Part shown: positions 2,541 through 56,012 of the stretch, piece by piece | Layout: each line of letters begins with the position of its first letter | How positions within the stretch are numbered: the first letter of the stretch is position 1 | NCBI GenBank assembly: GCA_018060845.1 | Contig: JAGOVG010000001.1 | Span: forward strand, 15,222 to 79,221 | Source: Candidatus Woesebacteria bacterium | GTDB lineage: Bacteria; Patescibacteriota; Microgenomatia; UBA1400; UBA12108 | Length of the DNA: 64,000 nt | Direction of reading: 5' to 3' | The notes under the pieces: model-generated | Databases searched by the model: none | The model's input: the letters and a program-made list of their open reading frames with translations, nothing else | What the model was told of the DNA's origin: nothing | Program-made: the position numbers and the translations under genes

Positions 2541-4184
2541 TTAATTATCAATAATAATTGGGATGACCAAAGGATTTTTGCCGTACTCTTCGAGAAAAAG
2601 TCGACTCACCTCTTTGGCGATCTTGTCTTTACTATACACCTTATCTCGATGAGAATCCTCTGCACGAAGCGCGGAACGGAGCGAGTTCTTAAATCGAGAC
2701 AGAACATCAGGTTCGATATGAGTGATTATCCCCTTGGGGATAAAGTCGACTTCGAGGGCGTTACCTGATCCAGTTACGACCGTAATCACCACCCCTTCTT
2801 GGAACATAGCCTGACGATCGGCGATCGGTTTGTCGCTCCTAGCAATCATGCCTGACTCGACATAGACTGTGCGCAGCGGGATTGGATCGCCCAGGTGAAC
2901 GATACCACCTGGCTCAATAACGAGCGGTTGGTTTTCGCTAGCTAAGATATGGTCCGGCGCGATCCCCATCTCACGAGCTAACTTGCCAAACTGCACGGCA
3001 TGCCGATGTGTACCACCAGTACCCATGACATACTTTGGTTTGGTAAAGGCTATCAACATCTTTATTTCGCTGGAGCTAGCGTGGCCTGAGACGTGGAGGT
3101 CGTCGGCGATGTCGCTATAGCTGACGCGCAGACCTTTGATGCTGAGCATGTCGATTAACCTATACACATTACTCTCGTTGCCGGGGATTGGATCGGCAGA
3201 AAAGATGACCTTGTCGCCTGAATCGAGCTTGATCATTTTATGATCCCCTACTGCGATCTTCTCTAGACTGCTACCGAGCTGACCTTGGCTACCGGCGATA
3301 ATGAGACATTGTTCATCCCTTGGTATATCTTTCATTTTGCGCTTATCAACAATCAGTCGTGGCGGGATTTTGAGAAATCCGAGTTCGGCGGCCACTTTGA
3401 CGTTTTTTTCGATACTGTAGCCGACAAAAGCAACTTTGCGGTTGTGCCGACGCGCGACCCAAAGAGCCTGCTGGATACGACTGATATTACTACTCATGGT
3501 AGTGACAATGACGCGGCCATTACAATCTCTAAACTCTCGCTCAAAAGACTCTTCAACACTCGCTTCGGAGAGTGAGTACCCTGGCTTCTCGGATCTTAGA
3601 CAGTCTGAGAGGAGGAGTGTTACCCCCTCCGCGCCAGCTCTTGTCATACTAGAGACATCCGGTAGCTCTTGGCCAACGGGAGTCCAGTCAAACTTAAAGT
3701 CTGAACCATGGTAGACATTGCCATGAGGAGTTTTGATGATTAGATGTTTGGTGTCGGGGACAGAGTGAGTGACAGGGATCATTTTGACTTCAAAAACACC
3801 GAGCTGGATCGGCTGGCGGTCACCGACTACGTTAATCATCTTAGGGTCGATACCGTAGTCTTTGAACTTTTCGCGCAAAAATCCAGCAGTTAACTTGCTA
3901 GCATAAATCGGGATCTGTCCACCGAGCTGAGGGATGACAAAGGGGAAGCCGCCGATATGGTCTTCGTGACCGTGAGTCACGACAAAGCCACGGATCCTAC
4001 TGATCTTGTCTTTGAGATAGGTAATATCAGGAATTGTTAAATCTACGCCTGGGACCCCTTCTTCGGGGAAGCCCATACCACAGTCGACGATAAAGATATC
4101 GGACTCGGATTCATAGACATACATATTGTCGTGAACATTGGGCATCCCACCGAGTGGGATCATTTTGATTGGAGAGTTAAGCAT
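2541..4184 (-). CDS. rnj: Ribonuclease J (metallo-beta-lactamase/beta-CASP)
   Basis: HGHEDHIGG motif; the N-terminus (KMIPLGGMPNVHDNMYVYESESDIFIVDCGMGFP) is typical of RNase J. Confidence 0.88.
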   Translation of the reverse strand: MLNSPIKMIPLGGMPNVHDNMYVYESESDIFIVDCGMGFPEEGVPGVDLTIPDITYLKDKISRIRGFVVTHGHEDHIGGFPFVIPQLGGQIPIYASKLTAGFLREKFKDYGIDPKMINVVGDRQPIQLGVFEVKMIPVTHSVPDTKHLIIKTPHGNVYHGSDFKFDWTPVGQELPDVSSMTRAGAEGVTLLLSDCLRSEKPGYSLSEASVEESFEREFRDCNGRVIVTTMSSNISRIQQALWVARRHNRKVAFVGYSIEKNVKVAAELGFLKIPPRLIVDKRKMKDIPRDEQCLIIAGSQGQLGSSLEKIAVGDHKMIKLDSGDKVIFSADPIPGNESNVYRLIDMLSIKGLRVSYSDIADDLHVSGHASSSEIKMLIAFTKPKYVMGTGGTHRHAVQFGKLAREMGIAPDHILASENQPLVIEPGGIVHLGDPIPLRTVYVESGMIARSDKPIADRQAMFQEGVVITVVTGSGNALEVDFIPKGIITHIEPDVLSRFKNSLRSALRAEDSHRDKVYSKDKIAKEVSRLFLEEYGKNPLVIPIIIDN

Positions 4185-4204: not shown

Positions 4205-5266
4205 TTAATACGCTTTCATATATTGTTTGTAATTGCTTATGTCGACTTTGACTGTCGCAGTTTTGCCCTCGACAATCTCGCGGGCAACACGCCTAGTTAA
4301 GGCAGCGAGGGTGCGCTGGAGTGTACGGATACCAGCGTCGTAGCCGAGTGGGCGGGCGACCACTGGCCAGACCGATTCGTCGATAACTAACTGGGATGGC
4401 AGTAGCCCTGATTCTTTGAGGGCTTTGGGGAGTAGATACTCGCGACTGATGTGGATCTTTTCTTCGTCTGTATAAGATGGCATCTGGATAAGCTCGAGAC
4501 GATCTAGAACCGCTGTTGCCACGTTGGTCGTATTATTGGCGGTTGCGACAAAGAGGACCTGGGACAGGTCGAGTGGGAAATCTAGGTAGTGATCAAGGAA
4601 GCGGTTGTTCTGGGTAGGATCCAAAAGTTCGACTAAGACACCCATGATGTCCGCACGCTCTTCTGCCCCGACACGATCTATTTCGTCGAGCAGGATAATC
4701 GGGTTCATACTACCAGCGTCCCTTAAGGCTTTGACAATGTGCCCTGGCTCGGCCTCGGCAAATAACCTAGACTTGCCGCGTAGATCCTGGGCACTACCCA
4801 AGCCACCAAACGGAATACGGGCAAATTTGCGACCGAGTGTTTCGGCCAGACTGTAGGCAAAAGTGGTTTTGCCTGTACCAACCAACCCAACCAAAAAGAT
4901 GGCTGGTGCTCTAACTACCTTTTCACCACCCTGGTCCATACGGAGTTTGATGGTTGCTAAGTATTCTAGAATGCGATCCTTGGTCTCCTGCATGCCGTAG
5001 TGACTCTTGTTCATGTTGGTGGCAGCAGCGACGATGTCGAGCTTGTCAGTAGTAGTTTCGCCCCATGGGATACTGGTGATCCAGTCGATGTAGTGGCTGA
5101 TGCGATCGTACTCGGCAGAGTAGACGCCGGTATTGATCATTCGGTTGAGGCGACCCAGCATTTCGATGGCCTTATCTTTTAAATCTTCGGGTAATTTGGT
5201 CGCATCAACTTTGGCTTTGAGCTTGACTAGTTCGTCGGCAAAATCTGTTTGGGCAATAGCATCCAT
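4205..5266 (-). CDS. Lon-like AAA+ ATPase module with no proteolytic domain and no N-terminal LAN domain
   Basis: Lon-type Walker A (GLVGTGKTT), ILLDEIDRV Walker B, and Lon-specific stretches (HYGMQETKDRILEYLA; DAGIRTLQRTLAAL). The ORF ends right after the alpha-subdomain. No S-K dyad protease domain follows. Confidence 0.72.
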   Translation of the reverse strand: MDAIAQTDFADELVKLKAKVDATKLPEDLKDKAIEMLGRLNRMINTGVYSAEYDRISHYIDWITSIPWGETTTDKLDIVAAATNMNKSHYGMQETKDRILEYLATIKLRMDQGGEKVVRAPAIFLVGLVGTGKTTFAYSLAETLGRKFARIPFGGLGSAQDLRGKSRLFAEAEPGHIVKALRDAGSMNPIILLDEIDRVGAEERADIMGVLVELLDPTQNNRFLDHYLDFPLDLSQVLFVATANNTTNVATAVLDRLELIQMPSYTDEEKIHISREYLLPKALKESGLLPSQLVIDESVWPVVARPLGYDAGIRTLQRTLAALTRRVAREIVEGKTATVKVDISNYKQYMKAY

Positions 5267-5280
5267 ATTTTTAGTATACC

Positions 5281-6396
5281 CTATGGCACGATGCGGACCA
5301 GCATGCCGACATCACTGTGATCATAAACATCTTTAGCGTCACTCGCAGATAGTGCGATACAGCCACCGGTTAGCTTGTCACCTATCTCACGATCATGACT
5401 GTATATTTTTTTGCCTTTGATGAGACTGGTGTAGGCTTTTTCGTGAAAGCCAAGATAAGCACCCACGTCATTTGCATATTCAAATGCCATCCAGTAGGGC
5501 ATCCAAGCGTTATAGATACCAGAGAATGCGAGAGGTGCCTTATTCATAATATGAAACTCCCCGACCGGTGTTGGATAATCTAGCCCCGTTGAAATCGTGT
5601 AGGTTTTGGCGAGTTGACCACTTGCAAAGAAATAAAGTTTTTGCTGGGAGATATCTACCTCGATATATTTGGCTGCGTGTTCACCACTGCTGGTTGGGCC
5701 ATCGTCTACACCGAGGACAACCGGAGTCGTCTGGAGTTTAAGACGCTCAAAGAGCGCACTTCGAACATTGCTAGTAGTTGAGTTCAGGCTAAAGTAATCT
5801 TTTTGCTTAGGGGTGAGGCGCGGCAAGATGTAGCCGAGGAGCATGGGCTCGTCGATCCCGAGAGGGACTGAGAGGTCGAGTGAGGTGGGCATAATCATGT
5901 TGCGTAGTAGCTCGGGCGGGAGCTCGAGTTCGGTCCCGCGACTACCGTCTTTGAGTAAGATTGGTAGCGATGACCGGTGGACGATGTTGAGCCTTTTGTT
6001 ATAGAGCTCGACCCGGCTCTGGTAGCGTGGGACTAACGTGTAGTTGGGAGTCAGAACTTGATGGGGCTCGGTGGTACCTCGCAGATTGGGGAGGGAGGAG
6101 AGCGCTATCTGATAATCCTGTGGTGAGCTAGTGAGGGTGACGCTTCCAGTCTTTGCATCATAGCTAAAAGATGGCTCACCCTGGTCAGTACTCGGGATGA
6201 CTATCGATTCCTGTGAGACTGGGAGATCTCTGACTTTGTAGGTCGTTGTAACATCTGGCAGCTCAAATGTTACCTCGGGATCGACTGGCATATCTGCCTG
6301 TACATTCCAGGTCTTTACCAAGACATAAGTAAGGAGAGAGACAAAGATAGTACCAAAAAATGTACCTAGGATAAGCGGGATGTTAGTTGGTTTCAT
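5281..6396 (-). CDS. L,D-transpeptidase (YkuD domain) with N-terminal membrane anchor
   Basis: C-terminal catalytic signature HxxxxGGCIAL..D (GFHEKAYTSL...TGGCIALSASDAKDVYDH). Overlaps the upstream gene by 4 nt. Confidence 0.8.
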   Translation of the reverse strand: MKPTNIPLILGTFFGTIFVSLLTYVLVKTWNVQADMPVDPEVTFELPDVTTTYKVRDLPVSQESIVIPSTDQGEPSFSYDAKTGSVTLTSSPQDYQIALSSLPNLRGTTEPHQVLTPNYTLVPRYQSRVELYNKRLNIVHRSSLPILLKDGSRGTELELPPELLRNMIMPTSLDLSVPLGIDEPMLLGYILPRLTPKQKDYFSLNSTTSNVRSALFERLKLQTTPVVLGVDDGPTSSGEHAAKYIEVDISQQKLYFFASGQLAKTYTISTGLDYPTPVGEFHIMNKAPLAFSGIYNAWMPYWMAFEYANDVGAYLGFHEKAYTSLIKGKKIYSHDREIGDKLTGGCIALSASDAKDVYDHSDVGMLVRIVP

Positions 6397-7559
6397 GGAG
6401 TCTGAGCAGAACTAGTAGCAGGAGTGGGGGTAGGTGAGACTAGAGCACTACTTACAAATGTTTTGAGTATTTCGTCCATCTCTTTGATGATGTTTACATC
6501 ATATTTGGCAGGGACATAATAGGTTACCCCACCAAAGTCGGTAGGAGTCGTAAAGTAAGGACCCTCTGCTTCTTTGTCGCAGAAGAAGAACGTTGATTTC
6601 TCCCCTTCGTTTTGATTAAAGTAACGGCGCATAACGAGATTAGCTTTGGTAGTAAATTCGGTATATTCTTTGTTTCGTAAATCACCTGATGAACCCTGGA
6701 ATGCAGGACTATCTTTAAACAGACAGACGGCACCACCGACAGGAGCCTGATACACCTTAATCTCGTAGTTGTTACGATAAATCGAGACCGTCAGAGTACC
6801 ATTTTCGGAGCTTTCTTTGACTGCCCAAGATTGTGGATGCGAAACAGAGAAAGCGGGATATGCTAGTGCATCAATTTTGCTAGTTACATATTCGACCCAA
6901 TCTATGCCAAGACCTGTTGTGGAGGTTAGCTTGAAAGTGGACAAGACGTTTCTGTATTCTTTGAGCAAACTCTCGCTGCTGATCGCATTTTTGCCGCCAG
7001 CTGGGAGTAGTCTAAAAATATAAATCTTGTCCTGGATCTGCGCATAGGTGATAACTGGTTGAAGACTCGTCTTAGGCCAACTCTCACTCCGCTCAAATGC
7101 ATCGTGATCCCCTACTTTGACTGGACTGGTCTTACTGCTGGTCCTACCATCCTGGAGAGTGCCAAAGTATTCTTCGAGGTTGCTAGTGGTTGCTTTGAAA
7201 CTCTCTATCTCCATAATGGCTGGTTCGTCGGTCTGGACTATTAAGCGACCTGATTGATCGGGACTAGTCTCGACCACGCTCCACTTAGGCGGGAGCGCGA
7301 TGCTATAAAAATGTGGTGTGTTGGTATAGCTGACGTATCCAGGAGGCGCATCTACCTGCTCTCCACCATTCGTTGTAGGAGCCTGGGTGCTACTCCTGCT
7401 AAAGAACGTAATGCCGAGCGCGAGGGAGACCAAGATGGCGGCGACTCCACCCAGAATGTAGGGTAGCCTGTTAGGTTTTTTGGCGTCAGCGACAGGGAGG
7501 ACTGGGGTCGTTTCGAGGATTGGAGCGGTCTGATTTTGAACGGGAGTATTTTCGGTCAT
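6393..7559 (-). CDS. Hypothetical membrane-anchored extracytoplasmic protein
   Basis: One N-terminal TM helix, no recognisable motifs. ATGA overlap with the L,D-transpeptidase gene suggests one operon. Confidence 0.5.
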   Translation of the reverse strand: MTENTPVQNQTAPILETTPVLPVADAKKPNRLPYILGGVAAILVSLALGITFFSRSSTQAPTTNGGEQVDAPPGYVSYTNTPHFYSIALPPKWSVVETSPDQSGRLIVQTDEPAIMEIESFKATTSNLEEYFGTLQDGRTSSKTSPVKVGDHDAFERSESWPKTSLQPVITYAQIQDKIYIFRLLPAGGKNAISSESLLKEYRNVLSTFKLTSTTGLGIDWVEYVTSKIDALAYPAFSVSHPQSWAVKESSENGTLTVSIYRNNYEIKVYQAPVGGAVCLFKDSPAFQGSSGDLRNKEYTEFTTKANLVMRRYFNQNEGEKSTFFFCDKEAEGPYFTTPTDFGGVTYYVPAKYDVNIIKEMDEILKTFVSSALVSPTPTPATSSAQTP

Positions 7560-7589: not shown

Positions 7590-7632
7590 CAGAAAAGCTC
7601 TCTAGTTACCCAGAGAGCTTTTCTTTTTACTT
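7590..7632 (-). terminator. Rho-independent terminator downstream of pnp
   Basis: Hairpin GCTCTCT-gggtaact-AGAGAGC followed by a U-tract on the minus strand. A T-tract on the plus strand also follows it. Confidence 0.5.
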
Positions 7633-7654: not shown

Positions 7655-9856
7655 TTAGCGACGAGGACGGAATCCGCCCCTGTCTCCACCGCGTGATCCC
7701 CCGCCAAAGCCACCGCTTCTGCGTGGACCACCAAAGCCACCTCGACCACCGCGATCTTCGCGAGGAGCCTCAGGCTTTAACTGGTCGAGTGGGACCATGG
7801 AGAGATCTACTCTGCCCTGATCGTCAACTCCTTTGACCCAGACGTGCACAGAGTCGCCTTCTTTGACAAGGCTACTGGCATCCTGGACATACTCAGCGCT
7901 CATGCGAGAGACGTGGACGAGACCCTGCTTGCCTGGGGCAAACTGCACAAAGCAGCCATAACCCTCGACACGAGTCACCTTGCCATCGTATTCTTCGCCA
8001 GCTTCTGGGACATGTACCATTCCCTTGATCCAGTTAACGGCTTTGTCCATCCCCTCGGGATCGACGCCGCTGACTGTGACTTTGCCGACACCTGTTGCAT
8101 CGTCGATATCGACATCTGCACCAGTCTCACTCATGATGAGCTTGATGTTTTTGCCTCCTGGGCCGATGATCTCGCCGATTTTGTCGGTTGGGATCTCGAA
8201 CTGGACGATCTTAGGAGCGTATTTACTCATCTCTTTTCTTGGTTCAGGAATAGCTTTGAGCATGACGTCCATGATCTGCATACGAGCGTCTTTGGCCTGG
8301 GCTAATGCCTGGGTCAAGACTTCGAAGCTGATGCCGCTGACCTTGATATCCATCTGGAGGGCGGTGATACCGTCGCGAGTACCTGCAACTTTAAAGTCCA
8401 TATCGCCAACGTGATCTTCGATACCAGCAATGTCAGTTAAGACAACGCTCTTTTTACCATCAGTCATTAGACCCATGGCTATACCAGCTACTGGTTTTTT
8501 CAGTGGGACACCGGCGGCCATAAGAGCCATACAGGAGCCACAGACACTAGCTTGGCTGGTACTACCATTACTACTCATAACCTCAGACACTACGTGAATA
8601 GTGTAAGGGAACTCTAGTTCGGATGGGAGCATGGGGACAATGGCTCTCTCAGCGAGTGCACCGTGACCAATCTCCCTCCTACCTGGAGCACCAAAACGAC
8701 CAGTTTCGCCTGATGCATAAGGAGGCATGGCATAGTGGTGGATGTAGCGCTTGACTGTCTCGGTTTCCATTGACTCGATGATCTGACCGAGTGAAGGAGC
8801 ACCGAGGGTGGCAATGGATAAGACCTGAGTCTGACCACGCTTAAACATGGCGCTTCCGTGGGGGCGAGGAAGAATGTCTACCTCGGCCTCTAGTGGTCGG
8901 ATCTCGACAGTCTTACGACCATCGACACGAATCTCTTCGTTGATAGTCATGGCACGAGTCTGCTCGGCTAAGACATCGTGAACGATCTCGCCTAGTTGTT
9001 TGCCATCGAGTTTGTCGGTGTATTCTTCTTTAAGTTTACCTACAAATTCTTCGATCAAACCATCCTCAGCCTGAGGAACGCCTAGTTTGGCACGAACATC
9101 TTTGCTTATTTTGTTGCTAACTTCATCTCTTAACTCTTGGGGAATAGTTTCTTTGGTTTCGAAGACCAATTTTTCTTTTCCTACTAGCTTTCTTAGCTCA
9201 TTGATTGAGACGATGATCTTTTTGATCTCGTCGTGGGCAAAAGCTAAGGCTTTTAACGTCTCTTCTTCGGTTACTTCGTTAGCACCGGCTTCGACCATTA
9301 CTATAGCTTCGGCAGAACCGGAGACGACTAGATCTAGCTTGGAGGTAGCGCGCTGCTCGTAGGTAGGATTGGCGACAAAGGCACCATCGATCATACCAAC
9401 ACGGACACCAGCAATAGGACCTTCCCAGGGGATGTTACTGATGTGGAGAGCGGCAGAGGTTGCGACTAGTCCTGGCATATCGGCGTCGTTACTACCATCG
9501 GCAGATAGGACGGTTGCGATAACCTGAACATCTCTTTTGACGTTCTTAGGGAAAAGTGGGCGGATAGAGCGGTCGATAATGCGACCTTTTAGAACTGCGT
9601 CATCACTAGGACGACCATCGCGCTTAACCCAGCGACTACCCTTGATTTTGCCACCAGCGTATAGCTTTTCGGCAAAGTCCACAGAGAGTGGGAAATATGA
9701 GAGAGTGGTGTCACTCTTGCCCATCACGGTTGTGACGTGGACAACAGTATCACCATAAGTTACGAGAATAGCGGCATTAGCCTGCTCGGAAAACTTCCCG
9801 TATTCGAGTATAAGATCTTGGCCACCCACCTGGGCGACGACTTTTGTAGACTGCAT
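7655..9856 (-). CDS. pnp: Polynucleotide phosphorylase with a C-terminal RGG/GGF-rich disordered tail
   Basis: Two RNase PH domains, KH and S1. Unusual C-terminal roughly 48 aa: REDRGGRGGFGGPRRSGGFGGGSRGGDRGGFRPRR. Confidence 0.95.
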   Translation of the reverse strand: MQSTKVVAQVGGQDLILEYGKFSEQANAAILVTYGDTVVHVTTVMGKSDTTLSYFPLSVDFAEKLYAGGKIKGSRWVKRDGRPSDDAVLKGRIIDRSIRPLFPKNVKRDVQVIATVLSADGSNDADMPGLVATSAALHISNIPWEGPIAGVRVGMIDGAFVANPTYEQRATSKLDLVVSGSAEAIVMVEAGANEVTEEETLKALAFAHDEIKKIIVSINELRKLVGKEKLVFETKETIPQELRDEVSNKISKDVRAKLGVPQAEDGLIEEFVGKLKEEYTDKLDGKQLGEIVHDVLAEQTRAMTINEEIRVDGRKTVEIRPLEAEVDILPRPHGSAMFKRGQTQVLSIATLGAPSLGQIIESMETETVKRYIHHYAMPPYASGETGRFGAPGRREIGHGALAERAIVPMLPSELEFPYTIHVVSEVMSSNGSTSQASVCGSCMALMAAGVPLKKPVAGIAMGLMTDGKKSVVLTDIAGIEDHVGDMDFKVAGTRDGITALQMDIKVSGISFEVLTQALAQAKDARMQIMDVMLKAIPEPRKEMSKYAPKIVQFEIPTDKIGEIIGPGGKNIKLIMSETGADVDIDDATGVGKVTVSGVDPEGMDKAVNWIKGMVHVPEAGEEYDGKVTRVEGYGCFVQFAPGKQGLVHVSRMSAEYVQDASSLVKEGDSVHVWVKGVDDQGRVDLSMVPLDQLKPEAPREDRGGRGGFGGPRRSGGFGGGSRGGDRGGFRPRR

Positions 9857-9879: not shown

Positions 9880-10146
9880 TTATTTGGCGAGGTTGAGGGT
9901 CTTGACCAGGGCACGATAACGGTCTTCGACGCTAGTTCTCAAATAGTTGAGAAGACGACGACGTTTAGAGACCATTTTCAGTAATCCGCGGCGAGAATGA
10001 TTGTCCTTTTTGTGAACCTTCAAGTGCTCAGTGAGCTCCTTGATTCGCTCAGTCAAGAGGGCAATCTGCACCTCGGGAGATCCAGTGTCTCCTTTCGTTG
10101 TTGCAAATTTTTTAATAATTTTGGATTTGTTATCGTCTTTTAGCAT
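9880..10146 (-). CDS. rpsO: 30S ribosomal protein S15
   Basis: [38 protein letters not shown] is classic S15. Conserved rpsO-pnp order. Confidence 0.95.
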
Positions 10147-10230: not shown

Positions 10231-10497
10231 TTAATAAACCTGGTTGTGAGTGCCTACATCATAAAAAATTAAGATCCCGTCCTTTTCACCATATACGACT
10301 CTGTAATCTCCTGTAATACTAAATGCTCTCTTGCCAATTTTTGTGCCTGTTAACGCGTGATCTCGAATCAGAGGATCTTTAGGATTAGTTTGGAAAAGCT
10401 TGAGACGCTCGGCAAATTTTTTGGATAGACTAGAGCTTGGCAAGATTCTTTTCTTGAAGGATTTCTCAAAATATTTAGAAAATTTAATTTTCTTCAT
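10231..10497 (-). CDS. Type II toxin of the RelE/ParE superfamily, YafQ-like mRNA interferase
   Basis: C-terminus RDHALTGTKIGKRAFSITGDYRVVYGEKDGILIFYDVGTHNQVY matches the YafQ/RelE core (H.L.G....R..H.....L.Y......L...GTH). Confidence 0.78.
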   Translation of the reverse strand: MKKIKFSKYFEKSFKKRILPSSSLSKKFAERLKLFQTNPKDPLIRDHALTGTKIGKRAFSITGDYRVVYGEKDGILIFYDVGTHNQVY

Positions 10498-10840
10498 ACC
10501 CCAATTGCTTCATAAGATCGTCCACACCGGTTGCTGATTTAAAATTTTTACCTTTGGCTAAATCCTGATCCATCTTGTTATAACGATTAATTGCATCTTT
10601 GGAGAGTTTAACGGTGGATGGCTCAGAGTAGACATCGACACGTAGCGTGCCAGAGGAGAAGCGATGCATAATGACCCTCATCGCCTCTTGCAGACTAGAG
10701 AATCCCTGACTTAGCGCCATTTGGTGGGCGCTATCTCTTAGATCTGTGCTTACCGGTATTTGAACAACTGTTCTACTCATATGCATACAATTGTAATGTT
10801 TTGGTATGCGGTTGTCAATATATCGAGAGTTATCCTGCAC
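10484..10840 (-). CDS. RelB/DinJ-type antitoxin (ribbon-helix-helix), partner of the YafQ-like toxin
   Basis: Its stop overlaps the toxin start by 14 nt. RHH-like segment SRTVVQIPVSTDLRDSAHQMALSQGFSSLQEAMRVIMHRF. The true start is probably the internal MHMSRT at about 10786. Confidence 0.62.
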   Translation of the reverse strand: MQDNSRYIDNRIPKHYNCMHMSRTVVQIPVSTDLRDSAHQMALSQGFSSLQEAMRVIMHRFSSGTLRVDVYSEPSTVKLSKDAINRYNKMDQDLAKGKNFKSATGVDDLMKQLGYEEN

Positions 10841-16254: not shown

Positions 16255-17373
16255 TTAATATAAGTTAAAGGTACTAGATTGTTCGTTTTTGTTGCCGCGC
16301 GCGTCAGTCATGCGAACGGCATAAGAGTGAGCACTACCAGAGTTTCCTTTGAAGCAATAGTCCGCTTTTGGTTGAGTAACCCAGTCACCACTATCGATTT
16401 TGTGCTCGATTTTGAGATCTTTTACTTCGGTTACATTGTCGTTGGGATAGTTGAGCAAGAAACAGGTACCATTCTCGTTCCAGTTGTAGGGACCGGAAAG
16501 GGTAAAGTTGGGAGCGATGTTATCGGCAAGATTCTTATAATCTAGCCGTGCTGTATTGTTGGCGTAAGTTGATTCGCCAAGTGCTTTGGCGTTGTTAATA
16601 GTTAACTCTATTTTGTGAGTGCCGATACCAATACTTACATCGCGACAAACATCATAGGTCTTACCTGCTTCTATCTTTGAATACTGCGAGAGCGTACCCT
16701 CTGCTACGACTTTGTCGTCTTCTCTTAAGGTATAACCTAGCTTGCTACCCTCTGTATCCTGATTACTGACGACATGGAAACAGGTGGTTATTTTGGCCGC
16801 CCAGCCTGATTTGAGTTCGTCAAACTCGCCTATCTGGGTACTACTAAATTCTCTATTGATCACACGTCCTGCGCCAGTATTATCATCATAAGTTTGTTTG
16901 ATGTGGGCACTCGGGTTACCAAAACGGACGTCGAGAGTAGCGCTAGATGTTACAGGAGTAGGAGTTGGGGAAGATGTGGTAGATGCTTTTGGGGTGTCTG
17001 TAGCAATGGTCGTGGGTTTACTACTAGCTTTGCTGCTTGGTTTGGCGCTAGTTTTGGGGCTCGCGCTCGCAGTTGCTGTCGCACTAGGCTCCACAGTGGG
17101 ACTAGCCATTACAGAAGGGCTCGGAGAGGGAGTAACACTCGCGACTTCTTTTTTTAGTTTAGAAAAATAGTAGAGGCCAGCAAAAAAAGAGGAGACTATG
17201 ACTACTACTACAACTCCGAGGAGCATGGGGATGATGGGCGAACTACTCTTTGGTTTGCCGAGAGGGAGAACTGGCGTAGTCTCTGGCTGGGTAACTAGAG
17301 GAGGAGGTGTGACAGGAGACTGTTCGGCTGCAACGTCGGGAGTGTCATTTTGATAAGTGTCCATGGACACCAC
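16255..17373 (-). CDS. Membrane-anchored protein with a Ser/Thr/Pro-rich linker and an extracellular domain
   Basis: TM helix at about aa 48-70, then a roughly 90-aa STP-rich linker (SPSPSVMASPTVEPSATATASASPKTSAKPSSK...), then a globular domain. Confidence 0.5.
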   Translation of the reverse strand: MVSMDTYQNDTPDVAAEQSPVTPPPLVTQPETTPVLPLGKPKSSSPIIPMLLGVVVVVIVSSFFAGLYYFSKLKKEVASVTPSPSPSVMASPTVEPSATATASASPKTSAKPSSKASSKPTTIATDTPKASTTSSPTPTPVTSSATLDVRFGNPSAHIKQTYDDNTGAGRVINREFSSTQIGEFDELKSGWAAKITTCFHVVSNQDTEGSKLGYTLREDDKVVAEGTLSQYSKIEAGKTYDVCRDVSIGIGTHKIELTINNAKALGESTYANNTARLDYKNLADNIAPNFTLSGPYNWNENGTCFLLNYPNDNVTEVKDLKIEHKIDSGDWVTQPKADYCFKGNSGSAHSYAVRMTDARGNKNEQSSTFNLY

Positions 17374-18245
17374 TATAGAACAGTTGCGAGTTGTTGTACA
17401 AGGTCCCTGGCTTTACGATTTAATTTGTCTGGCAACATAACCTTGAGTTTGATATAAAAATCCCCCCTACCACTGCTGCGGAGATGTTTAATACCTTTGC
17501 CGGTCAACCTCATGGTAGTGCTAGGCTGGGTACCTGGACGGATCTTGATATCGAGATCACCCTCGAGAGTCGGGATAGTAGTCTCGCCACCAAGGAGCGC
17601 GAGTGTGAGTGGGATCTCATGGAACAGGTAGATGTCGCTACCCTCACGGCGGAACTTGACGTGATCGCGGACACTAATACTTACATCAAATTCGTTGTAT
17701 CTGATACGAGTCCCGTCGTCTGCGCCTGCGGGGATTTTGACAGTATAGGTCTTCCCCTCATGAACAAAACTTTTCTCAACACCATTTACTGCATCCATAA
17801 ACTCGATTGCGAGACTGTAGTGTGGTTTGGGTCTGTACTGATTGCCAAAAGGGTTCTGGCCGCCAAAGAAACTCTCAAAAATATTAAAGGGATCCTGAAA
17901 ACCACCCTGACCCTGTTGACCAAAGAGGTCTTCAAAACCACCTCCAGAGCTGTAGGTATAGGTAAAGGGACCTGAGCGATAGGACTGTCCCCCGCCTCCA
18001 CCACCAAAGCCAGCCGATGGGTCAAAGGCAGCGTGGCCAAACTGATCGTATTTGGTGCGCTTTTCTTTGTTACTTAGGACCTCGTAGGCTTCGTTGATCT
18101 CTTTAAACTTGGCCTCAGCACCTTTGTCTTTGTTGCGATCTGGGTGCCACTGGAGAGCGAGCTTGCGATAAGCGCTCTTGAGCTCGGTCTCACTAGAAGT
18201 CTTGTTTACCCCTAAGATGTCGTAGTAGTCGCGTTTGGTAGCCAT
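17373..18245 (-). CDS. J-domain co-chaperone (DnaJ/CbpA-like, no zinc-finger domain)
   Basis: J-domain DYYDILGV...HPDRN, G/F-rich region, C-terminal DnaJ_C. No CxxCxGxG repeats. Start probably MATKRDYY at about 18245 (the ORF extends to 18281). Confidence 0.85.
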   Translation of the reverse strand: MATKRDYYDILGVNKTSSETELKSAYRKLALQWHPDRNKDKGAEAKFKEINEAYEVLSNKEKRTKYDQFGHAAFDPSAGFGGGGGGQSYRSGPFTYTYSSGGGFEDLFGQQGQGGFQDPFNIFESFFGGQNPFGNQYRPKPHYSLAIEFMDAVNGVEKSFVHEGKTYTVKIPAGADDGTRIRYNEFDVSISVRDHVKFRREGSDIYLFHEIPLTLALLGGETTIPTLEGDLDIKIRPGTQPSTTMRLTGKGIKHLRSSGRGDFYIKLKVMLPDKLNRKARDLVQQLATVL

Positions 18246-18290
18246 ATAGGAGATTATAATGAGATCTGTAGCAGATGACAAGGGAGAGTG

Positions 18291-23294: not shown

Positions 23295-25211
23295 TTACTT
23301 TTCATCAACTACTTCCCCTTCTTCTGCGCCCTTGTCTCCAGACTTGGGTTTTTGTCCTTCGGTGGACTCAGGACCTGTCTGAGCGGAGTCAGACGCGGCT
23401 GCGGCTTTGTATAGGCGCTCGCCGTATTTAGAGAGAGCGTCGGAAGCTTTTTTGAAGGCTTCATCGATACTTTCGACTGTGGCATCAGCCTTGTCTTTGG
23501 CTTCTTTTAGAGCGCCAACGGCTTCTTCGATCTCTTTCTTTTCGTCCTCGGTGATTTTGTCACCGGCGTCTTTGAGAGTCTTTTCGGTCTGGAAGATGAG
23601 AGAGTCTGCCTCATTCTTCTTTTCGACTAGCTCCTTTTTCTTTTTATCTTCTTCGGCGTGGAGCTCGGCCTCTTTTTTCATGGTCTCGATCTCTTCGTCA
23701 CTAAGGTTAGTGGCGTTTTGGATAGAGATCTTTTGCTCTTTGCCAGTCCCTTTATCTTTGGCACTCACGTGGAGGATACCGGATGCATCGATGTCAAAAG
23801 TGACCTCGATCTGAGGGATCCCACGAGGAGCGGGGGCGATTCCATCTAGGACAAAACGACCCAGACTCTTGTTATCCGCGGCCATCGGGCGCTCACCCTG
23901 CAGGACATTGATCTCGACCTGGGGCTGGTTGTCGCTCGCGGTACTAAATACCTGACTCTTACTGGTTGGGACTGTGGTATTACGCTCAATAAGAGCTGTC
24001 CTGACACTACCCATGGTCTCGATACCGAGAGTCAGAGGAGTGACATCTAGCAAGAGGACATCGTTAACTTCGCCACCTAGGATACCGGCCTGAATGGCGG
24101 CACCTACGGCAACAACCTCGTCGGGATTAACCCCCTTATGAGGTTCGCGACCAAAGAAGTCGGCGACAGCTTTTTGGACAGCTGGCATGCGAGTCTGGCC
24201 ACCTACGAGGACGACTTCGTCGATATCGCTGGCTTTGAGTTTGGCATCGGCTAGACATTTTTTGACTGGCTCGATGGTCTTTTTGATTAGGTCATCAACT
24301 AGTTCTTCTAGTTTGGCGCGGCTAATACTCAGCGTTAGATGTAGTGGTGTGCCATCTTTGCCCTGGGTGATAAAGGGCTGGTTGATCTCGGCGCTACTAC
24401 TACTAGAGAGCTCGATCTTGGCTTTTTCGGCGGCGTCACGGATCCTCTGCAGGGCCTGTTTATCGCCCGATAGGTCGACTCCATTATCTTTTTTGAACTC
24501 GGCCACGATGTAGTCGACGAGTTTGTGGTTAAAGTCGTCACCACCGAGGAAGGTGTCGCCGTTGGTGGCTTTGACCTCAAAGACTCCATCGCCAATTTCG
24601 AGGATACTAATATCAAAGGTTCCACCACCGAGGTCGTAGACCGCGATTTTGCCTGATTTCTTTTTGTCGAGACCGTAGGCTAATGCTGCTGCGGTTGGCT
24701 CGTTGACGATACGCTTTACTTCTAAGCCGGCGATCTTACCTGCTTGCATGGTAGCTTGACGCTGAGAATCGTCAAAGTAGGCTGGGACGGTGATGACAGC
24801 TGAGCTTACTTTGGTACCTAGATAGGCTTCGGCATCGGCTTTGATCTTGCCCAATATCTTGGCACTGATCTCTTGTGGAGTGTAGACTTTGCCATCTACT
24901 TTGACTCCTGCCATATCGTCTTTGCCTGCTGCGACCTCGTAAGGGACCTTTTTGATCGTATCTTTGACCATGGCATCGCTCATTTTGCGACCCATTAGGC
25001 GTTTGACACTATAGATAGTGTTCTTACTATTTAGGACCATTTGGTTTTTGGCGACCTGGCCAACTAAGTTTTTGATCGGCTCGACGATACTGGGGATGGT
25101 GTTTCCACCCTCAGCACTAGGGATTACCTTGGCTTTGCCACCCTCCATGACTGCGATACAACTATTAGTGGTACCTAGGTCGATACCGATTGTTTTTCCT
25201 GTGTTAGTCAT
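23295..25211 (-). CDS. dnaK: Chaperone DnaK (Hsp70)
   Basis: [22 protein letters not shown], full NBD and SBD. Confidence 0.97.
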
Positions 25212-47624: not shown

Positions 47625-48050
47625 ATGTTATACTCTTACCTTATGATTAACTATGAGCTATATACCCATACTCAGACTCCTGAACTAGTGACGTATGTTC
47701 TGCTCCCTTATACATGGACCGAAGACATTACCACAACTAGCTTTGTTCAGGCTAGGCGTGTCGCATCTGCTCTAATGTGTATTGATGATCTTAATTCAGT
47801 GAGTGAGGGAAATGGAGCTGGGACAGCACTACTAAATGCTATAGCTGTTTGGGGCATGAGTCGTGGACTGGATAAAATTACGGGTAGTGTAGTAACTAGA
47901 GATGGATTTTACGAGGCCCTCGTGAAATGGTACGGAAAACGTGGACTCAGTGTGCAGAATGGGTGGCTAGTGGGCGAGACAAGTGAAGTACGAGACATGA
48001 CTGCAGAAATATTGCACGCACATAACGTAGAGTACAAGATTGCTACTTAA
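47625..48050 (+). CDS. Possible GNAT-like acetyltransferase
   Basis: Weak motif A-like GNGAGTALL. Confidence 0.35.
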   Translation: MLYSYLMINYELYTHTQTPELVTYVLLPYTWTEDITTTSFVQARRVASALMCIDDLNSVSEGNGAGTALLNAIAVWGMSRGLDKITGSVVTRDGFYEALVKWYGKRGLSVQNGWLVGETSEVRDMTAEILHAHNVEYKIAT

Positions 48051-48133
48051 ATATCTCAGAAATAAAAAGGGTGGTAATATCTAGCTTTACAATGTTTGGC
48101 CATAGGTTTAGGAATTGCATATGTGTTTACCAA

Positions 48134-48161
48134 CCCCCTCCCTACAATCGCAGGGAGGGGG
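48134..48161. promoter_or_regulatory. Very stable GC hairpin (10-bp stem CCCCCTCCCT/AGGGAGGGGG) at the left edge of the AT-rich island
   Basis: Lies between convergent genes. No adjoining U-tract on either strand. Confidence 0.4.
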
Positions 48162-48170
48162 TGTTAGGCC

Positions 48171-48368
48171 TTACTTACTCCTGTTATATGGAGATTGATT
48201 TGTTGGCTTGAGTGAAACACCTATATGACCAGCTCTTGACTGAACTGCGTCTGGTGTCCGACCAAGCTTAAGACCGATGACTCTAGTAGGCGTATTCTGC
48301 CTTACTAGTGATCTAAGTTGTGACTCCTGTGAAGAAGTCCAAGGTTTATTGTTATTTTTGGGTGACAT
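48171..48368 (-). CDS. Small GcrA-N-terminal-like HTH protein
   Basis: WTSSQESQLRSLVRQNTPTRVIGLKLGRTPDAVQSRAGHIGVSL follows the GcrA N-terminal pattern W-T-xE-x3-L-...-IA-x2-LG-x-T-x-NAV-x-gK-x-hRLGL. SD GGAGCT precedes the start. Confidence 0.45.
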   Translation of the reverse strand: MSPKNNNKPWTSSQESQLRSLVRQNTPTRVIGLKLGRTPDAVQSRAGHIGVSLKPTNQSPYNRSK

Positions 48369-48530
48369 AATAGCTCCTTATATTTGCCTTCTACCCACCA
48401 GAGAGAGCTTGCTAAAAATTTAATAGTGTAGAATACTAGTCTTGATGTAGAACTGAGAGGAGTGAGTAATTCATTCCTCTCTTTTCGTATTCTGTCGCCA
48501 ATTGTTTTTTGGCATGTTTAATCCTTTGGC

Positions 48531-48558
48531 TACAAAAACCTCCCTTAACCGGGAGGTT
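48531..48558 (-). terminator. Rho-independent terminator ending the hsdR-to-ORF150 operon
   Basis: On the minus strand: CCTCCC-ggttaa-GGGAGG followed by TTTTTGT, about 135 nt downstream of the ORF150 stop. Confidence 0.55.
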
Positions 48559-48692
48559 GCCTTGTTCCCGCTTAAGCGGTTGTGGTGATTAAGAATTACT
48601 TCGCGTCATCATAACTTGAAAACTATCCTAACGAATATTACACATACCATGCAACCACTAGATCTATATCAAAGTAGTGCAACTTAATTTCT

Positions 48693-49145
48693 TCATCCTG
48701 AAATATCTACAATCGCTTTAACTCTGTTTTTGTCGACCCTGTGTATCTGGATGGCCTTACGATTGGCAGATATTTCCATTGCGAGGCGATTAAGGATGTA
48801 CATACGGATATTTTTCTCAGTCATATCCTCATATTTCACAGTCGTAACTAGGTAATTATTTATAGTTTGTACATCTTCAACAGTCACCTTGAAATGTTTT
48901 GAGGTTGTATTCTCATAATCTAGAGCATTATGAATGAGTCTAGCGTTGTACCAGTTGCCATACGACTCAAATACGTTATATGTGAATTCTCCGGGGAAGA
49001 GGTCGTTTAGTGATTTAAGAAAGTCAACAGTTTTTCGAAGAACTATAGACTTTGCTAGTTGAAAAACCTGCTCTATGAATCTAAATACCCAAACCATTGC
49101 ATCCACTATTGGATCACTAGGCTCTTTAATCTTCTTTTTCTTCAT
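48693..49145 (-). CDS. Hypothetical protein (last gene of the R-M-linked operon)
   Basis: ORF with 20-nt overlap to the FtsK-gamma gene. No recognised motif. Confidence 0.4.
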   Translation of the reverse strand: MKKKKIKEPSDPIVDAMVWVFRFIEQVFQLAKSIVLRKTVDFLKSLNDLFPGEFTYNVFESYGNWYNARLIHNALDYENTTSKHFKVTVEDVQTINNYLVTTVKYEDMTEKNIRMYILNRLAMEISANRKAIQIHRVDKNRVKAIVDISG

Positions 49146-49479
49146 ATTTTCTTAGAACATCTCTAGGTTTTACTCCCTCTGCCTTACTAACGACCCCTTC
49201 TTTTTCTAGTTTTTCCATAATCATTGCTGCTTTGTTGTATCCATGTGACATACGGCGTTGTAGGTATGACACACTGGCTTTGCCTGCGTCAGATATGACT
49301 CTCCATGCCTCGTTATATTCTTCATCAGCTATCGTAGTAAAGGGATTTGCGTAAGGAATATCAATTTCATCTTCATCTTCTCTTGGCTCGGTATAAAGTA
49401 AATAAGCCACCATCTTCTCGAGGATTAATACACGATTGGTTAATTCATCTACTTGCTTCATTAATTGATCATCGCTCAT
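49126..49479 (-). CDS. Standalone FtsK gamma-domain (winged-helix) protein
   Basis: C-terminal 58 aa EEYNEAWRVISDAGKASVSYLQRRMSHGYNKAAMIMEKLEKEGVVSKAEGVKPRDVL align almost residue-for-residue with the FtsK C-terminus at 345-2480 (ASTSFLQRKMSLGYNKAARIMDQLETAGVVGQQEGAKPRTIL). Confidence 0.75.
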   Translation of the reverse strand: MSDDQLMKQVDELTNRVLILEKMVAYLLYTEPREDEDEIDIPYANPFTTIADEEYNEAWRVISDAGKASVSYLQRRMSHGYNKAAMIMEKLEKEGVVSKAEGVKPRDVLRKYEEKED

Positions 49480-49487
49480 ACGCCTCC

Positions 49488-50163
49488 TTAGAATGGTAAA
49501 TCACTCTTAGTATTCCGATACCTTTCATTAACATGCCGATACTTACAAAACCGGCAATCCTCATTCTCATTGGGGATTGGGCCAGTGATGAGCGTATTGA
49601 TCTCATCCATAAATTTGGTGAAAGATGACTCGTCGATTGGGACTTCGAGCCACTTGGGTGGGAAAGTTAGAGTGGCAACTCCATTATCGAACTTTACCTG
49701 ATCGGGATACATGACAATAAGACCCATTTGGGTGATGCGAATTGGTTCGTCATGCCTGGGATGTTCCATGGCGAATTTGTAGGAATAGAGCTGGGTCTTA
49801 TATTTATCGATTTTGTCCACATGTGGCTGAGATAGCTTAAAGTCTACTAAAAGATATGTACCATCTCGACGTTTAACTAGTAGGTCATATTTGCCTTTGA
49901 GATACAGCTCTGTGCCGGGTATAACGATAGACTCCACAAATCCCCTCCTGCTTCTCAACGATTCCCTCTGGTAGACTTGGGGATAGGGCACGCAACTCTT
50001 TACCAACTAGCGTTCCTTGTAAGCGAGTATTGATAGCTGAGAAGATCCCTGGCATGGGCATTTGAGGCCTCATAACCTGATCGTGGACTTTCATCCAATA
50101 ACATCGTTTACACTCTTCATATAAATAGGCAAAATCTGATGGAGAGAGTTTGCATTGATGCAT
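49488..50163 (-). pseudogene. Cas4-like/RecB-family PD-(D/E)XK nuclease with Cys cluster, interrupted by a 1-nt frameshift
   Basis: N-terminal ORF has SPSDFAYLYEECKRCYW (Cas4 YCPRrfY-type). C-terminal ORF, in another frame, has GKYDLLVKRRDGTYLLVDFKLS (D...D/ExK), TQLYSYKF (QxxxY) and a C-terminal CRFC. The two frames would join by deleting one C in the CCCC tract at 49942-49945. Confidence 0.65.
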
Positions 50164-50165
50164 AG

Positions 50166-50759
50166 TTATGAGTTCTTCTCTCGTATCTCTTCCTCTAAGG
50201 ACTTCAATGTAGATTCAAATAGTGTCATAAATTCGTCAGTTTTCCCATTAGTTGCTCCGTACAATTCCATCCAAAGCCCTTCTGCATCTTTATTGCCGAT
50301 TCTATTAGTCGGATCGTCCCATTTAGATTCGTAAAAGATTTCAAAATCTATTGCATATCTTTTTATCAGGTCTAGGATTGATTGAATGTATTTAGTTTTA
50401 TCTTTTCCCCATAAGGCGTCGGCTCTGAGCTTTAATATTCTGAGATGACTATTAGTTTCTATTACGTCATTAAGTCTTGCTGCATGTTCACTGTAATGTG
50501 CATCACGTTGTTTTTCCACATCCTTCATAATATCTTGTTGATATCTATAAAATCTTCCTCTCGCATGTATGAGCTTTTCTTCTATCTCATACACACATTC
50601 CATAATTTCAAGTGATAATTTGTATTCATCTTGACCTTTTACTTGCTTCTTCCATGTTGACAACCCTTGATACGCTATCCATACTCCAAAACCTACTAGG
50701 AGAGAGTTAACTAATTCTAGATTTAACATGTTTAATAGACATGGTAGATTAATTAACAT
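50166..50759 (-). CDS. Hypothetical protein with N-terminal TM helix, directly downstream of hsdMS
   Basis: Lies 4 nt after the hsdMS stop. N-terminal hydrophobic helix (LVNSLLVGFGVWIAYQGL), then a charged helical domain with no recognised motif. Confidence 0.45.
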   Translation of the reverse strand: MLINLPCLLNMLNLELVNSLLVGFGVWIAYQGLSTWKKQVKGQDEYKLSLEIMECVYEIEEKLIHARGRFYRYQQDIMKDVEKQRDAHYSEHAARLNDVIETNSHLRILKLRADALWGKDKTKYIQSILDLIKRYAIDFEIFYESKWDDPTNRIGNKDAEGLWMELYGATNGKTDEFMTLFESTLKSLEEEIREKNS

Positions 50760-50763
50760 ATCA

Positions 50764-53163: not shown

Positions 53164-53165
53164 AT

Positions 53166-55742: not shown

Positions 55743-55898
55743 AGCGGCAACATCTCAGATTGCTCGGGCAACTTTGAAGATGACAATCGCCAACTTACTG
55801 TGAAGGATGTTGTTTCTAAAGATGAGGTTGGCCTAGCCTGCCACAAATGATTTAGGAGATCAGTGGCAAATGCTTCAGTACTAACAGCCACAGCTGAC

Positions 55899-55922
55899 CA
55901 TTTTGTCGGCGTCGACAAAATG
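55899..55922. promoter_or_regulatory. Palindromic operator-like site 1 upstream of hsdR (CATTTTGTCGGCGTCGACAAAATG)
   Basis: 24-bp inverted repeat with one mismatch. It sits inside a roughly 50-nt unit (TGACCATTTTGTCGGCGTCGACAAAATGATATTTGAC) that is repeated 90 nt downstream. Confidence 0.6.
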
Positions 55923-55988
55923 ATATTTGACGGGTTGATCGCTCCTTTTAAAGGATTCTTATGCACACAATATAGAGGATTGACCAAC

Positions 55989-56012
55989 CATTTTACCGGC
56001 GCCGGTAAAATG
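55989..56012. promoter_or_regulatory. Palindromic operator-like site 2 (CATTTTACCGGCGCCGGTAAAATG), a perfect 24-bp palindrome
   Basis: Second copy of the unit (TGACCAACCATTTTACCGGCGCCGGTAAAATGGTTTTTGAC). Half-site CATTTT(A/G)(C/T)CGGCG. Confidence 0.6.

Follow-up and report, generated by a model that had tools for sequence, protein, structure and literature searches.

ClpX, HslU and Lon belong to one clade of AAA+ proteins, HCLR, in which ClpX docks onto ClpP and HslU onto HslV. The ATPase of LonC is degenerate, and the chloroplast FtsHi/Ycf2 import motor represents an AAA-protease lineage in which proteolysis has been abandoned and ATP-driven work kept. The Lon subfamilies A, B, C and BA combine, by definition, an ATPase and a protease in one chain (PMC9569914). 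Here we describe a Lon-type AAA+ ATPase gene that specifies no protease domain, located at 4205..5266 on the minus strand of a 64,000-nucleotide stretch of DNA from a Candidatus Woesebacteria bacterium (contig JAGOVG010000001.1 of assembly GCA_018060845.1, positions 15,222 to 79,221), hereafter the window. The gene is complete, running from an ATG start to a TAA stop at 4205-4207, and encodes 353 amino acids. An earlier note on this DNA had read the open reading frame (ORF) as following Lon through both ATPase subdomains and then stopping, and comparison with Pfam, NCBIfam and the PDB bears out both the coordinates and the description. That the product is a protease-less Lon-type ATPase, and not a truncation, we regard as nearly certain.

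Within the chain, Pfam recognises only an AAA domain (aa 124-260) and a Lon_lid domain (aa 284-336). The NCBIfam profile of LonA (MEROPS S16 subfamily A), TIGR00763 'endopeptidase La', matches with E=1.3e-95, the match being limited to profile positions 249-572 of 795; its score of 321.5 bits falls under the family cut-off of 608.05, as does that against NF008053 (241.6 versus a cut-off of 891). The best PDB sequence match is B. subtilis LonA (3m6a, E=3e-76), and the LonA proteins of E. coli, Meiothermus and Thermus align through residues ~241-578, the alignments to LonA structures beginning at chain residues 241-249. The closest laboratory counterparts are fragments of LonA: 3m6a itself, M. 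taiwanensis Lon without its N-domain (4ypl) and the engineered E. coli 'Lon AAA+ domain' 6n2i, whose 344 residues are almost coextensive with our protein (query 8-347 versus chain 6-336). The three-helix bundle and AAA+ module of LonA are 38-44% identical to it and collinear over aa 8-350. The protein resembles Lon and not ClpX or HslU; matches to ClpA and ClpV reach only E ~1e-3 (NCBIfam). An AlphaFold2 (AF2) monomer model, with a mean predicted local distance difference test score (pLDDT) of 72.5 and a predicted template modelling score (pTM) of 0.67, was matched by LonA chains over ~340-355 aligned columns. Judged by these alignments, the protein consists of the LonA three-helix bundle and the large and lid AAA+ subdomains (LonA residues ~245-578) and nothing else.

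The N-terminal helical region (aa 1-115; 4922..5266, minus strand, as for all features of the gene) corresponds to the final part of the long helix of LonA and the three-helix bundle, residues ~245-355 of E. coli Lon. It carries a conserved SHYIDWIxxxPWG motif, recognised by consensus comparison with LonA, and in the AF2 model it forms helices at 6-22, 27-46, 51-65, 78-88 and 93-111 (pLDDT ~75-89). The large alpha/beta subdomain (aa 116-262; 4481..4921) contains Walker A, G127-LVGTGK-T134 (4865..4888), where LonA has GPPGVGKT; pore loop 1 (aa 163-175, RGKSRLFAEAEPG; 4742..4780), where LonA has RGHRRTY[VI]GA[ML]PG; and Walker B, L192-LDEID-197 with D194 and E195 (4676..4693), after which pore loop 2 comes next. 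The sensor-1 region ATANN (4532..4546) and the arginine finger motif DRLE (4493..4504) supply N244 and R256, the counterparts of E. coli Lon N473 and R484, and sensor-2 R314, equivalent to E. coli R542, lies in AGIRTL (4319-4336) inside the lid, a small alpha-helical subdomain (aa 263-353; 4208..4480); motifs were mapped with the E. coli Lon residue numbering of PMC9569914. The C-terminus YMKAY-COOH (4208..4222) aligns with the start of the LonA ATPase-protease linker, [YF]LGxP[RK][FY], so that by alignment the chain stops exactly where that linker begins.

What LonA has in addition is missing at both ends. The S16 Ser-Lys protease domain is absent from the chain, as determined by Pfam and by a custom Lon_C hidden Markov model (HMM), and so is the N-terminal LON (PUA-like) substrate-binding domain of ~240 aa, by Pfam and a custom N-domain HMM, the match to LonA beginning only at about residue 245. 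Both HMMs were built from 70 full-length LonA proteins and run against all ORFs of at least 60 aa, and then against all stop-to-stop frames of at least 30 aa, in the window and 86 other loci (87 sequences, 1.47 Mb). The Lon_C HMM recovered 68 of the 70 full-length Lons as a positive control; in the window and the 86 loci neither it nor the N-domain HMM found a signal in any frame. The earlier note had proposed looking for a Lon_C ORF elsewhere in the genome, and within the 1.47 Mb covered by the window and flanks none was found. It had also identified the neighbouring ORF as RNase J and not a protease fragment, and this is indeed the case: RNase J domains are present and the gene begins 20 nt past the ATPase stop. 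A protease domain hidden by read-through, as a frameshifted remnant or as an adjacent fragment was ruled out by the TAA stop, by RNase J following 20 nt later and by the complete lack of Lon_C and N-domain signal. Other large ORFs of the window were considered as a full-length Lon or AAA protease and rejected; those scanned are not proteases and include a PMT glycosyltransferase, type I restriction-modification subunits, DnaK, LepA, MurJ, UvrD-like helicases, IF2, NusA and DnaJ. The protein has a Lon-type AAA+ module but neither a protease domain nor an N-domain, its pore loop lacks the LonA motif, and it scores below the NCBIfam cut-offs; on sequence criteria it is not a protease and should not be filed as Lon protease.

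The short form is not peculiar to this genome. A one-genome-per-species scan found 239 genomes that encode a relative, and the best 80 loci (54-99% identity), from Woese-, Collier-, Chisholm- and Cerribacteria, were taken for comparison. The earlier note had suggested comparing orthologue lengths; among the complete orthologues of these best 80 of 239 genomes the length and stop are the same, all ending 0-6 residues from the C-terminus of the window protein. A word-indexed search of 5.8 billion proteins returned at least 120 clusters (formed at 90% identity) that are 77-100% identical to the window protein and all 347-363 aa long; where named, they belong to Woesebacteria or Microgenomates, and none of the at least 120 close clusters listed has a Lon_C or LON Pfam match. 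More distant short forms, two of which carry Dojkabacteria names, emerged from an exhaustive HMMER search over 1.84 billion cluster representatives, at 38-54% identity and 351-669 aa; these have AAA and Lon_lid only, and their terminal extensions are low-complexity sequence rich in Q/P or S/N. A further search, seeded with the most distant of them (P0168, 38% identity), yielded at least 120 proteins of 342-507 aa, again with AAA-type domains and Lon_lid only, named in NCBI for Dojkabacteria, Patescibacteria or 'Nomurabacteria'. The family thus spans several lineages of the candidate phyla radiation (CPR): Microgenomates, Dojkabacteria and other Patescibacteria. C-terminal extensions of Dojkabacteria members (P0155, 548 aa; P0154, 428 aa) were considered as degenerate Lon_C, and N-terminal extensions (P0145, P0133, P0140, P0141) as Lon N-domains; both ideas were rejected, the former being S/N-rich and the latter Q/P/S-rich low complexity, without a Pfam or HMM match in the first case and without a match in the second.

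The gene is also under very strong purifying selection. The ratio of nonsynonymous to synonymous substitution (dN/dS, Nei-Gojobori) is 0.019-0.107 in the eight computable pairs of nine orthologues, synonymous sites being saturated in the ninth (L019); these sites are near saturation elsewhere too, with a proportion of synonymous differences (pS) of 0.52-0.54 even between 99%-identical proteins. Across Microgenomates the ATPase retains 54-60% identity, compared with 48-59% for NusA, 48-54% for PNPase and 38-44% for RNase J; its conservation is on a par with that of NusA and PNPase and exceeds that of RNase J. A neighbour-joining tree of 159 AAA+ modules (341 columns), with the top-scoring set as the LonA sample, has a single split that separates all 89 short forms from 70 full-length LonA proteins with a bootstrap of 96/100. 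The closest full-length Lons, at ~39-43% identity, come from unrelated bacteria (Clostridiales, Binataceae) and are LonA of the ordinary type. Because the short forms make up one split against LonA, the neighbour-joining tree indicates that the protease and N-domains were lost once, long ago. The highest-scoring representatives in the HMMER search (P0121-P0131 and others) are 1000-1800 aa long with two to three Lon-type AAA stretches; one of them, P0121 (1675 aa), combines three AAA modules with Lon_lid and Lon_C and is a tandem-AAA Lon.

These data bear directly on whether the gene could be a recent truncation, a pseudogene or an assembly artefact of an ordinary lon, the first of which the earlier note had entertained. 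The bare fact that Lon homology halts at the end of the lid is all that speaks for such an origin. It is contradicted by the uniform length and end point of complete orthologues from 80 genomes and of more than 240 protein clusters, by dN/dS values of 0.02-0.11, by the single old, monophyletic clade of the short forms, and by a mid-window position between tightly packed, intact genes with no Lon_C or N-domain remnant in any frame. A full-length Lon at this locus is likewise contradicted by the 80 genomes. We consider such an origin refuted and exceedingly improbable. The gene is intact and anciently established, and the alternative offered in the same note, an ATPase-only Lon derivative, is upheld by this same uniformity of length and end, low dN/dS and separation from full-length LonA.

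The motifs of the family were counted in 75 Microgenomates orthologues and 70 LonA modules, and in a wider set of 120 Dojkabacteria-type relatives among the matches listed. Walker A is GLVGTGKT in 73 of the 75 orthologues and GLQG[VI]GKT in the wider set, where LonA has GPPG[VT]GKT; Walker B reads LLDEID in the short family and (F)LLDEIDK in LonA. The wider set keeps the ATPase motifs, and K133, D194/E195, N244, R256 and R314 are kept throughout, in the 75 orthologues as in the 120 more distant proteins. LonA and the short family have Walker A and B, sensor-1, the arginine finger, sensor-2 and Lon_lid in common, and the full set of residues required for binding and hydrolysing nucleotide and for inter-subunit sensing is conserved family-wide. 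Like LonB, LonC and LonBA, the short family has a Lon-family ATPase module that deviates from LonA, but it has made the opposite choice: a catalytically intact ATPase is predicted to have been kept and the protease lost.

The pore loops present a different picture. In LonA, pore loop 1 grips substrate and reads RGHRRT-Y-[VI]-G-A-[ML]-PG, with Tyr in 70 of 70 and Gly in 68 of 70 sampled proteins, whereas the Microgenomates orthologues have RG[QEK]SRL-[H/F/Y]-[LIA]-E-[AS]-EPG, the Tyr position being His in 53, Phe in 19 and Tyr in 2 of the 75 and the Gly being replaced by Glu in 72; the core T-Y-[VI]-G of LonA has in effect become L-[H/F]-[LIA]-E. The window protein has L-F-A-E, with Phe169 at the Tyr position and Glu171 at the invariant Gly position, and most of its Microgenomates relatives have H-[LI]-E. 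The loop is hypervariable in the wider set, with 73 variants among the 120 sequences listed, S, N, V, Y, A or F at the Tyr position and Asp at the Gly position in 91. In pore loop 2, the RGDP of LonA is R[AM]DI in the short family (R204-A-D-I207 in the window protein).

We propose that the protein is a LonA-derived ATPase that works without proteolysis and is probably not a classical threading unfoldase, a reading to which we assign a probability of roughly 55%. The subunits would form a ring, because a conserved, trans-acting arginine finger makes sense only in an oligomer, and this ring would hydrolyse ATP. The ATPase alone would not degrade proteins, and from the lost aromatic-hydrophobic-Gly of pore loop 1, on which Lon-type threading depends, the free variation of that loop in part of the family and the lost RGDP of pore loop 2 we infer that it would probably not carry out processive polypeptide threading of the Lon kind. 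ATP would more likely be spent on remodelling, holding or assembling a protein or complex without degrading it, as by a chaperone-like protein or an assembly factor. The FtsHi/Ycf2 motor offers an analogy only: it belongs to a different AAA family (FtsH) with no homology beyond the AAA+ fold, and its protease domain was retained but inactivated, whereas that of the short Lon family was deleted outright.

Several considerations weigh against this proposal. The ATPase activity, the ring and the non-proteolytic role are all predictions from sequence, and the AF2 model is of moderate confidence, with pLDDT below 50 in the pore loop and the sensor-1/arginine-finger region, where it is too weak to bear a surface or docking analysis. 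The LonA N-domain recognises substrates and aids oligomerisation (PMC9961632) and isolated Lon P domains crystallise as hexamers (PMC9569914), so a protein with neither may need another route to assemble. It is also possible that the Phe of the window clade, or the His followed by Leu or Ile of most Microgenomates, allows some gripping of substrate, and a peptidase partner may be encoded elsewhere in the genome.

Such a partner would make the protein one half of a split Lon-like protease, in which the ATPase ring docks, in the fashion of ClpX or HslU, on a separately encoded peptidase of the Lon_C type or of another self-compartmentalising type. Some AAA+ proteases are known to carry ATPase and peptidase on separate subunits (PMC9569914), the ATPase motifs of the short family are intact, and a docking element could be provided by the conserved aromatic residue (Y, W or F) on which nearly all Microgenomates chains end (…FLPKW, …YLPQY, …YMKAY-COOH) and which aligns with the start of the LonA linker. 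This aromatic may, however, be a leftover linker residue, and it is confined to Microgenomates: most wider-family members have five extra C-terminal residues, and 80 of the 120 listed end in Ser. The short family would share with ClpX and HslU an AAA+ ring layout with the peptidase not in the same chain, but unlike them it has no identified IGF-type loop, no peptidase partner gene nearby and no GYVG-type pore loop; the Tyr-hydrophobic-Gly needed for feeding a peptidase is lost, and the position is hypervariable in the wider family. Fission products usually stay adjacent, yet there is zero Lon_C signal in the window and flanks. Moreover, the recurring neighbours are PNPase, S15, uracil-DNA glycosylase (UDG), RNase J and FtsK (DnaG, RpoD, NrdR and RNR at eight loci assigned by eye), and no peptidase recurs within ±10 kb across the 86 loci, whose neighbour genes were not all scanned; at one Dojkabacteria locus (L082) Peptidase_C39_2 and Peptidase_M78 genes lie close by. 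We therefore regard a split protease as unlikely. The earlier note had put forward an unfoldase or chaperone, or a partner for a separate peptidase, as possible roles; its ATPase-only premise stands, and the unfoldase and the peptidase partner are left without specific support by the lost pore-loop motif and the lack of a recurring peptidase neighbour.

The lon gene adjoins clpX in many bacteria; the context of the short family is a pnp-rnj block. Clustering of the genes at 80 loci gives the ancestral order NusA-IF2-(DHH-like)-S15-PNPase-[ATPase]-RNase J-FtsK, with a median same-strand downstream gap of 22 nt. Of 76 loci, 55 have PNPase no more than five genes upstream, and in 25 it is directly adjacent; of 78 loci, 59 have RNase J no more than five genes downstream, directly adjacent in 26. 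One Dojkabacteria contig and one labelled 'Nomurabacteria' have DnaJ-NusA-IF2-x-S15-PNPase-[ATPase]-UDG-…-RNase J-FtsK, and the 38%-identical branch keeps the block order in part. At L086, an ATPase-UDG pair stands beside an inverted NusA-IF2-DHH block, with PNPase and RNase J not nearby; eight Microgenomates loci, assigned by eye, are relocated to DnaG-RpoD-[ATPase]-x-NrdR-RNR, and L082 shows yet another context. The family has one conserved genomic address, nusA-infB-rpsO-pnp-[gene]-(udg)-rnj-ftsK. UDG (PF03167) directly follows the ATPase gene in Dojkabacteria-type genomes, with gaps of 0-36 nt (L084 9217-9873, L085 9137-9748, L086 9029-9556), and UDG-like genes, judged by eye, occupy the same place in some Microgenomates loci, making UDG a second recurrent neighbour.

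In the window, the gene lies well inside the stretch, with no contig edge, and its neighbours up to ~10 kb are all on the same (minus) strand. Downstream are RNase J (2541..4184), identified by its Pfam domains, and FtsK (345-2525); upstream are a YkuD L,D-transpeptidase (5281-6396), which ends, stop included, 14 nt before the ATPase start, a 388-aa protein without a Pfam match (6393-7559), PNPase (7655..9856), the ancestral immediate upstream neighbour, and S15 (9880-10146), with FtsK, PNPase and S15 identified by translation and by clustering with Pfam-matched orthologues. Beyond S15, going upstream, come a YafQ-type toxin pair, a DHH-like protein, IF2, NusA and DnaJ. The YkuD and 388-aa genes (5281-7559) intervene between pnp and the ATPase gene only in close relatives of the window; pnp directly abuts the ATPase gene in most other genomes. 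Because the 14- and 20-nt gaps flanking the ATPase gene contain no predicted terminator, co-transcription with pnp and rnj is likely, and the ATPase would probably be co-expressed in this way with housekeeping genes of RNA turnover and translation. A perfect 13-bp palindromic hairpin, AGAAAAGCTCTCT…AGAGAGCTTTTCT, lies at 7591-7624, directly downstream of pnp, and looks like a terminator or attenuator set between pnp and the gene group to which the Lon-type ATPase belongs.

This setting suggests a further possibility, that the protein is an ATPase linked to RNA turnover or translation: a degradosome-like accessory partner of PNPase and RNase J, or a partner of components of the ribosome or nucleoid, in which the known affinity of the Lon AAA+ module for nucleic acids would be put to new use. 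The gene keeps its place between pnp and rnj, within the nusA-infB-rpsO-pnp block, down to ~40% identity across CPR classes, the short intergenic gaps suggest co-transcription, and the depositors of 6n2i named the E. coli Lon AAA+ domain 'DNA-binding ATP-dependent protease La'. Housekeeping gene order is, however, often conserved in small streamlined genomes and is alone no proof of a functional link, and the eight relocated Microgenomates loci and L082 have different contexts. The conserved acidic pore-loop residues E171 and E173 argue against nucleic acid threading through the pore. A shift to basic isoelectric point (pI) as a sign of nucleic-acid binding was ruled out: the short proteins are not more basic than LonA modules (median pI 5.7 versus 6.2). 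On balance we hold this role to be rather improbable.

Other features of the window were recorded in passing. DnaJ (17373-18281) and DnaK (23295-25211), both on the minus strand, belong with the ATPase gene to one stretch of housekeeping genes, and DnaJ is kept upstream of nusA in Dojkabacteria and 'Nomurabacteria' loci too. Between rpsO and the DHH-like gene, at 10231-10840 (minus strand), an 88-aa YafQ/RelE-type toxin (PF15738, E=9e-10) overlaps a 118-aa ORF without a Pfam match, probably forming a type II toxin-antitoxin pair; GC content dips locally to 0.414, against ~0.49. A second low-GC stretch at ~48000-56000 (0.335-0.41 versus 0.45-0.50 elsewhere) contains a type I restriction-modification system, with HsdR at 53166-55742 and a fused HsdM+HsdS at 50764-53163 (both minus strand), and is probably a horizontally acquired island.

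The protease-less proteins have gone into databases under other descriptions. JGI/IMG names them 'ATP-dependent Lon protease', a systematic mis-annotation, and NCBI gives the generic label 'AAA family ATPase'. Published inventories may consequently credit Microgenomates and Dojkabacteria with a Lon protease that they possibly lack, and the family changes the way in which CPR proteostasis ought to be reconstructed. Among loci L003-L079, many records of metagenome-assembled genomes are titled 'uncultured Pseudomonadales bacterium' (one 'Gammaproteobacteria', one 'Spirochaetia') despite a Microgenomates-type gene and synteny, and these titles are evidently placeholder or mislabelled taxonomy. The full-text literature searched, a limited collection, yielded no account of naturally protease-less LonA proteins or of Lon in CPR/Patescibacteria, and the short Lon-type ATPase family is apparently undescribed.

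Three features in combination point to a core function: a constant place between pnp and rnj, degenerate pore loops and extreme sequence conservation. In its boldest form, which we consider speculative and improbable as a whole, our proposal would be that a CPR branch comprising Microgenomates, Dojkabacteria and relatives turned LonA into an essential AAA+ machine that neither degrades nor threads proteins and is integrated into the PNPase/RNase J/translation operon, where it might, for instance, use ATP to remodel complexes that act in RNA decay or associate with ribosomes; the branch possibly has no Lon protease at all. Lon has been defined as a single chain with ATPase and protease, and the family provides a natural test case for a Lon motor without proteolysis and for the 'chaperone' side of Lon. 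Were this CPR branch to have such a machine and no Lon protease, it would amount to a natural separation of the long-debated chaperone-like activity of Lon from proteolysis.

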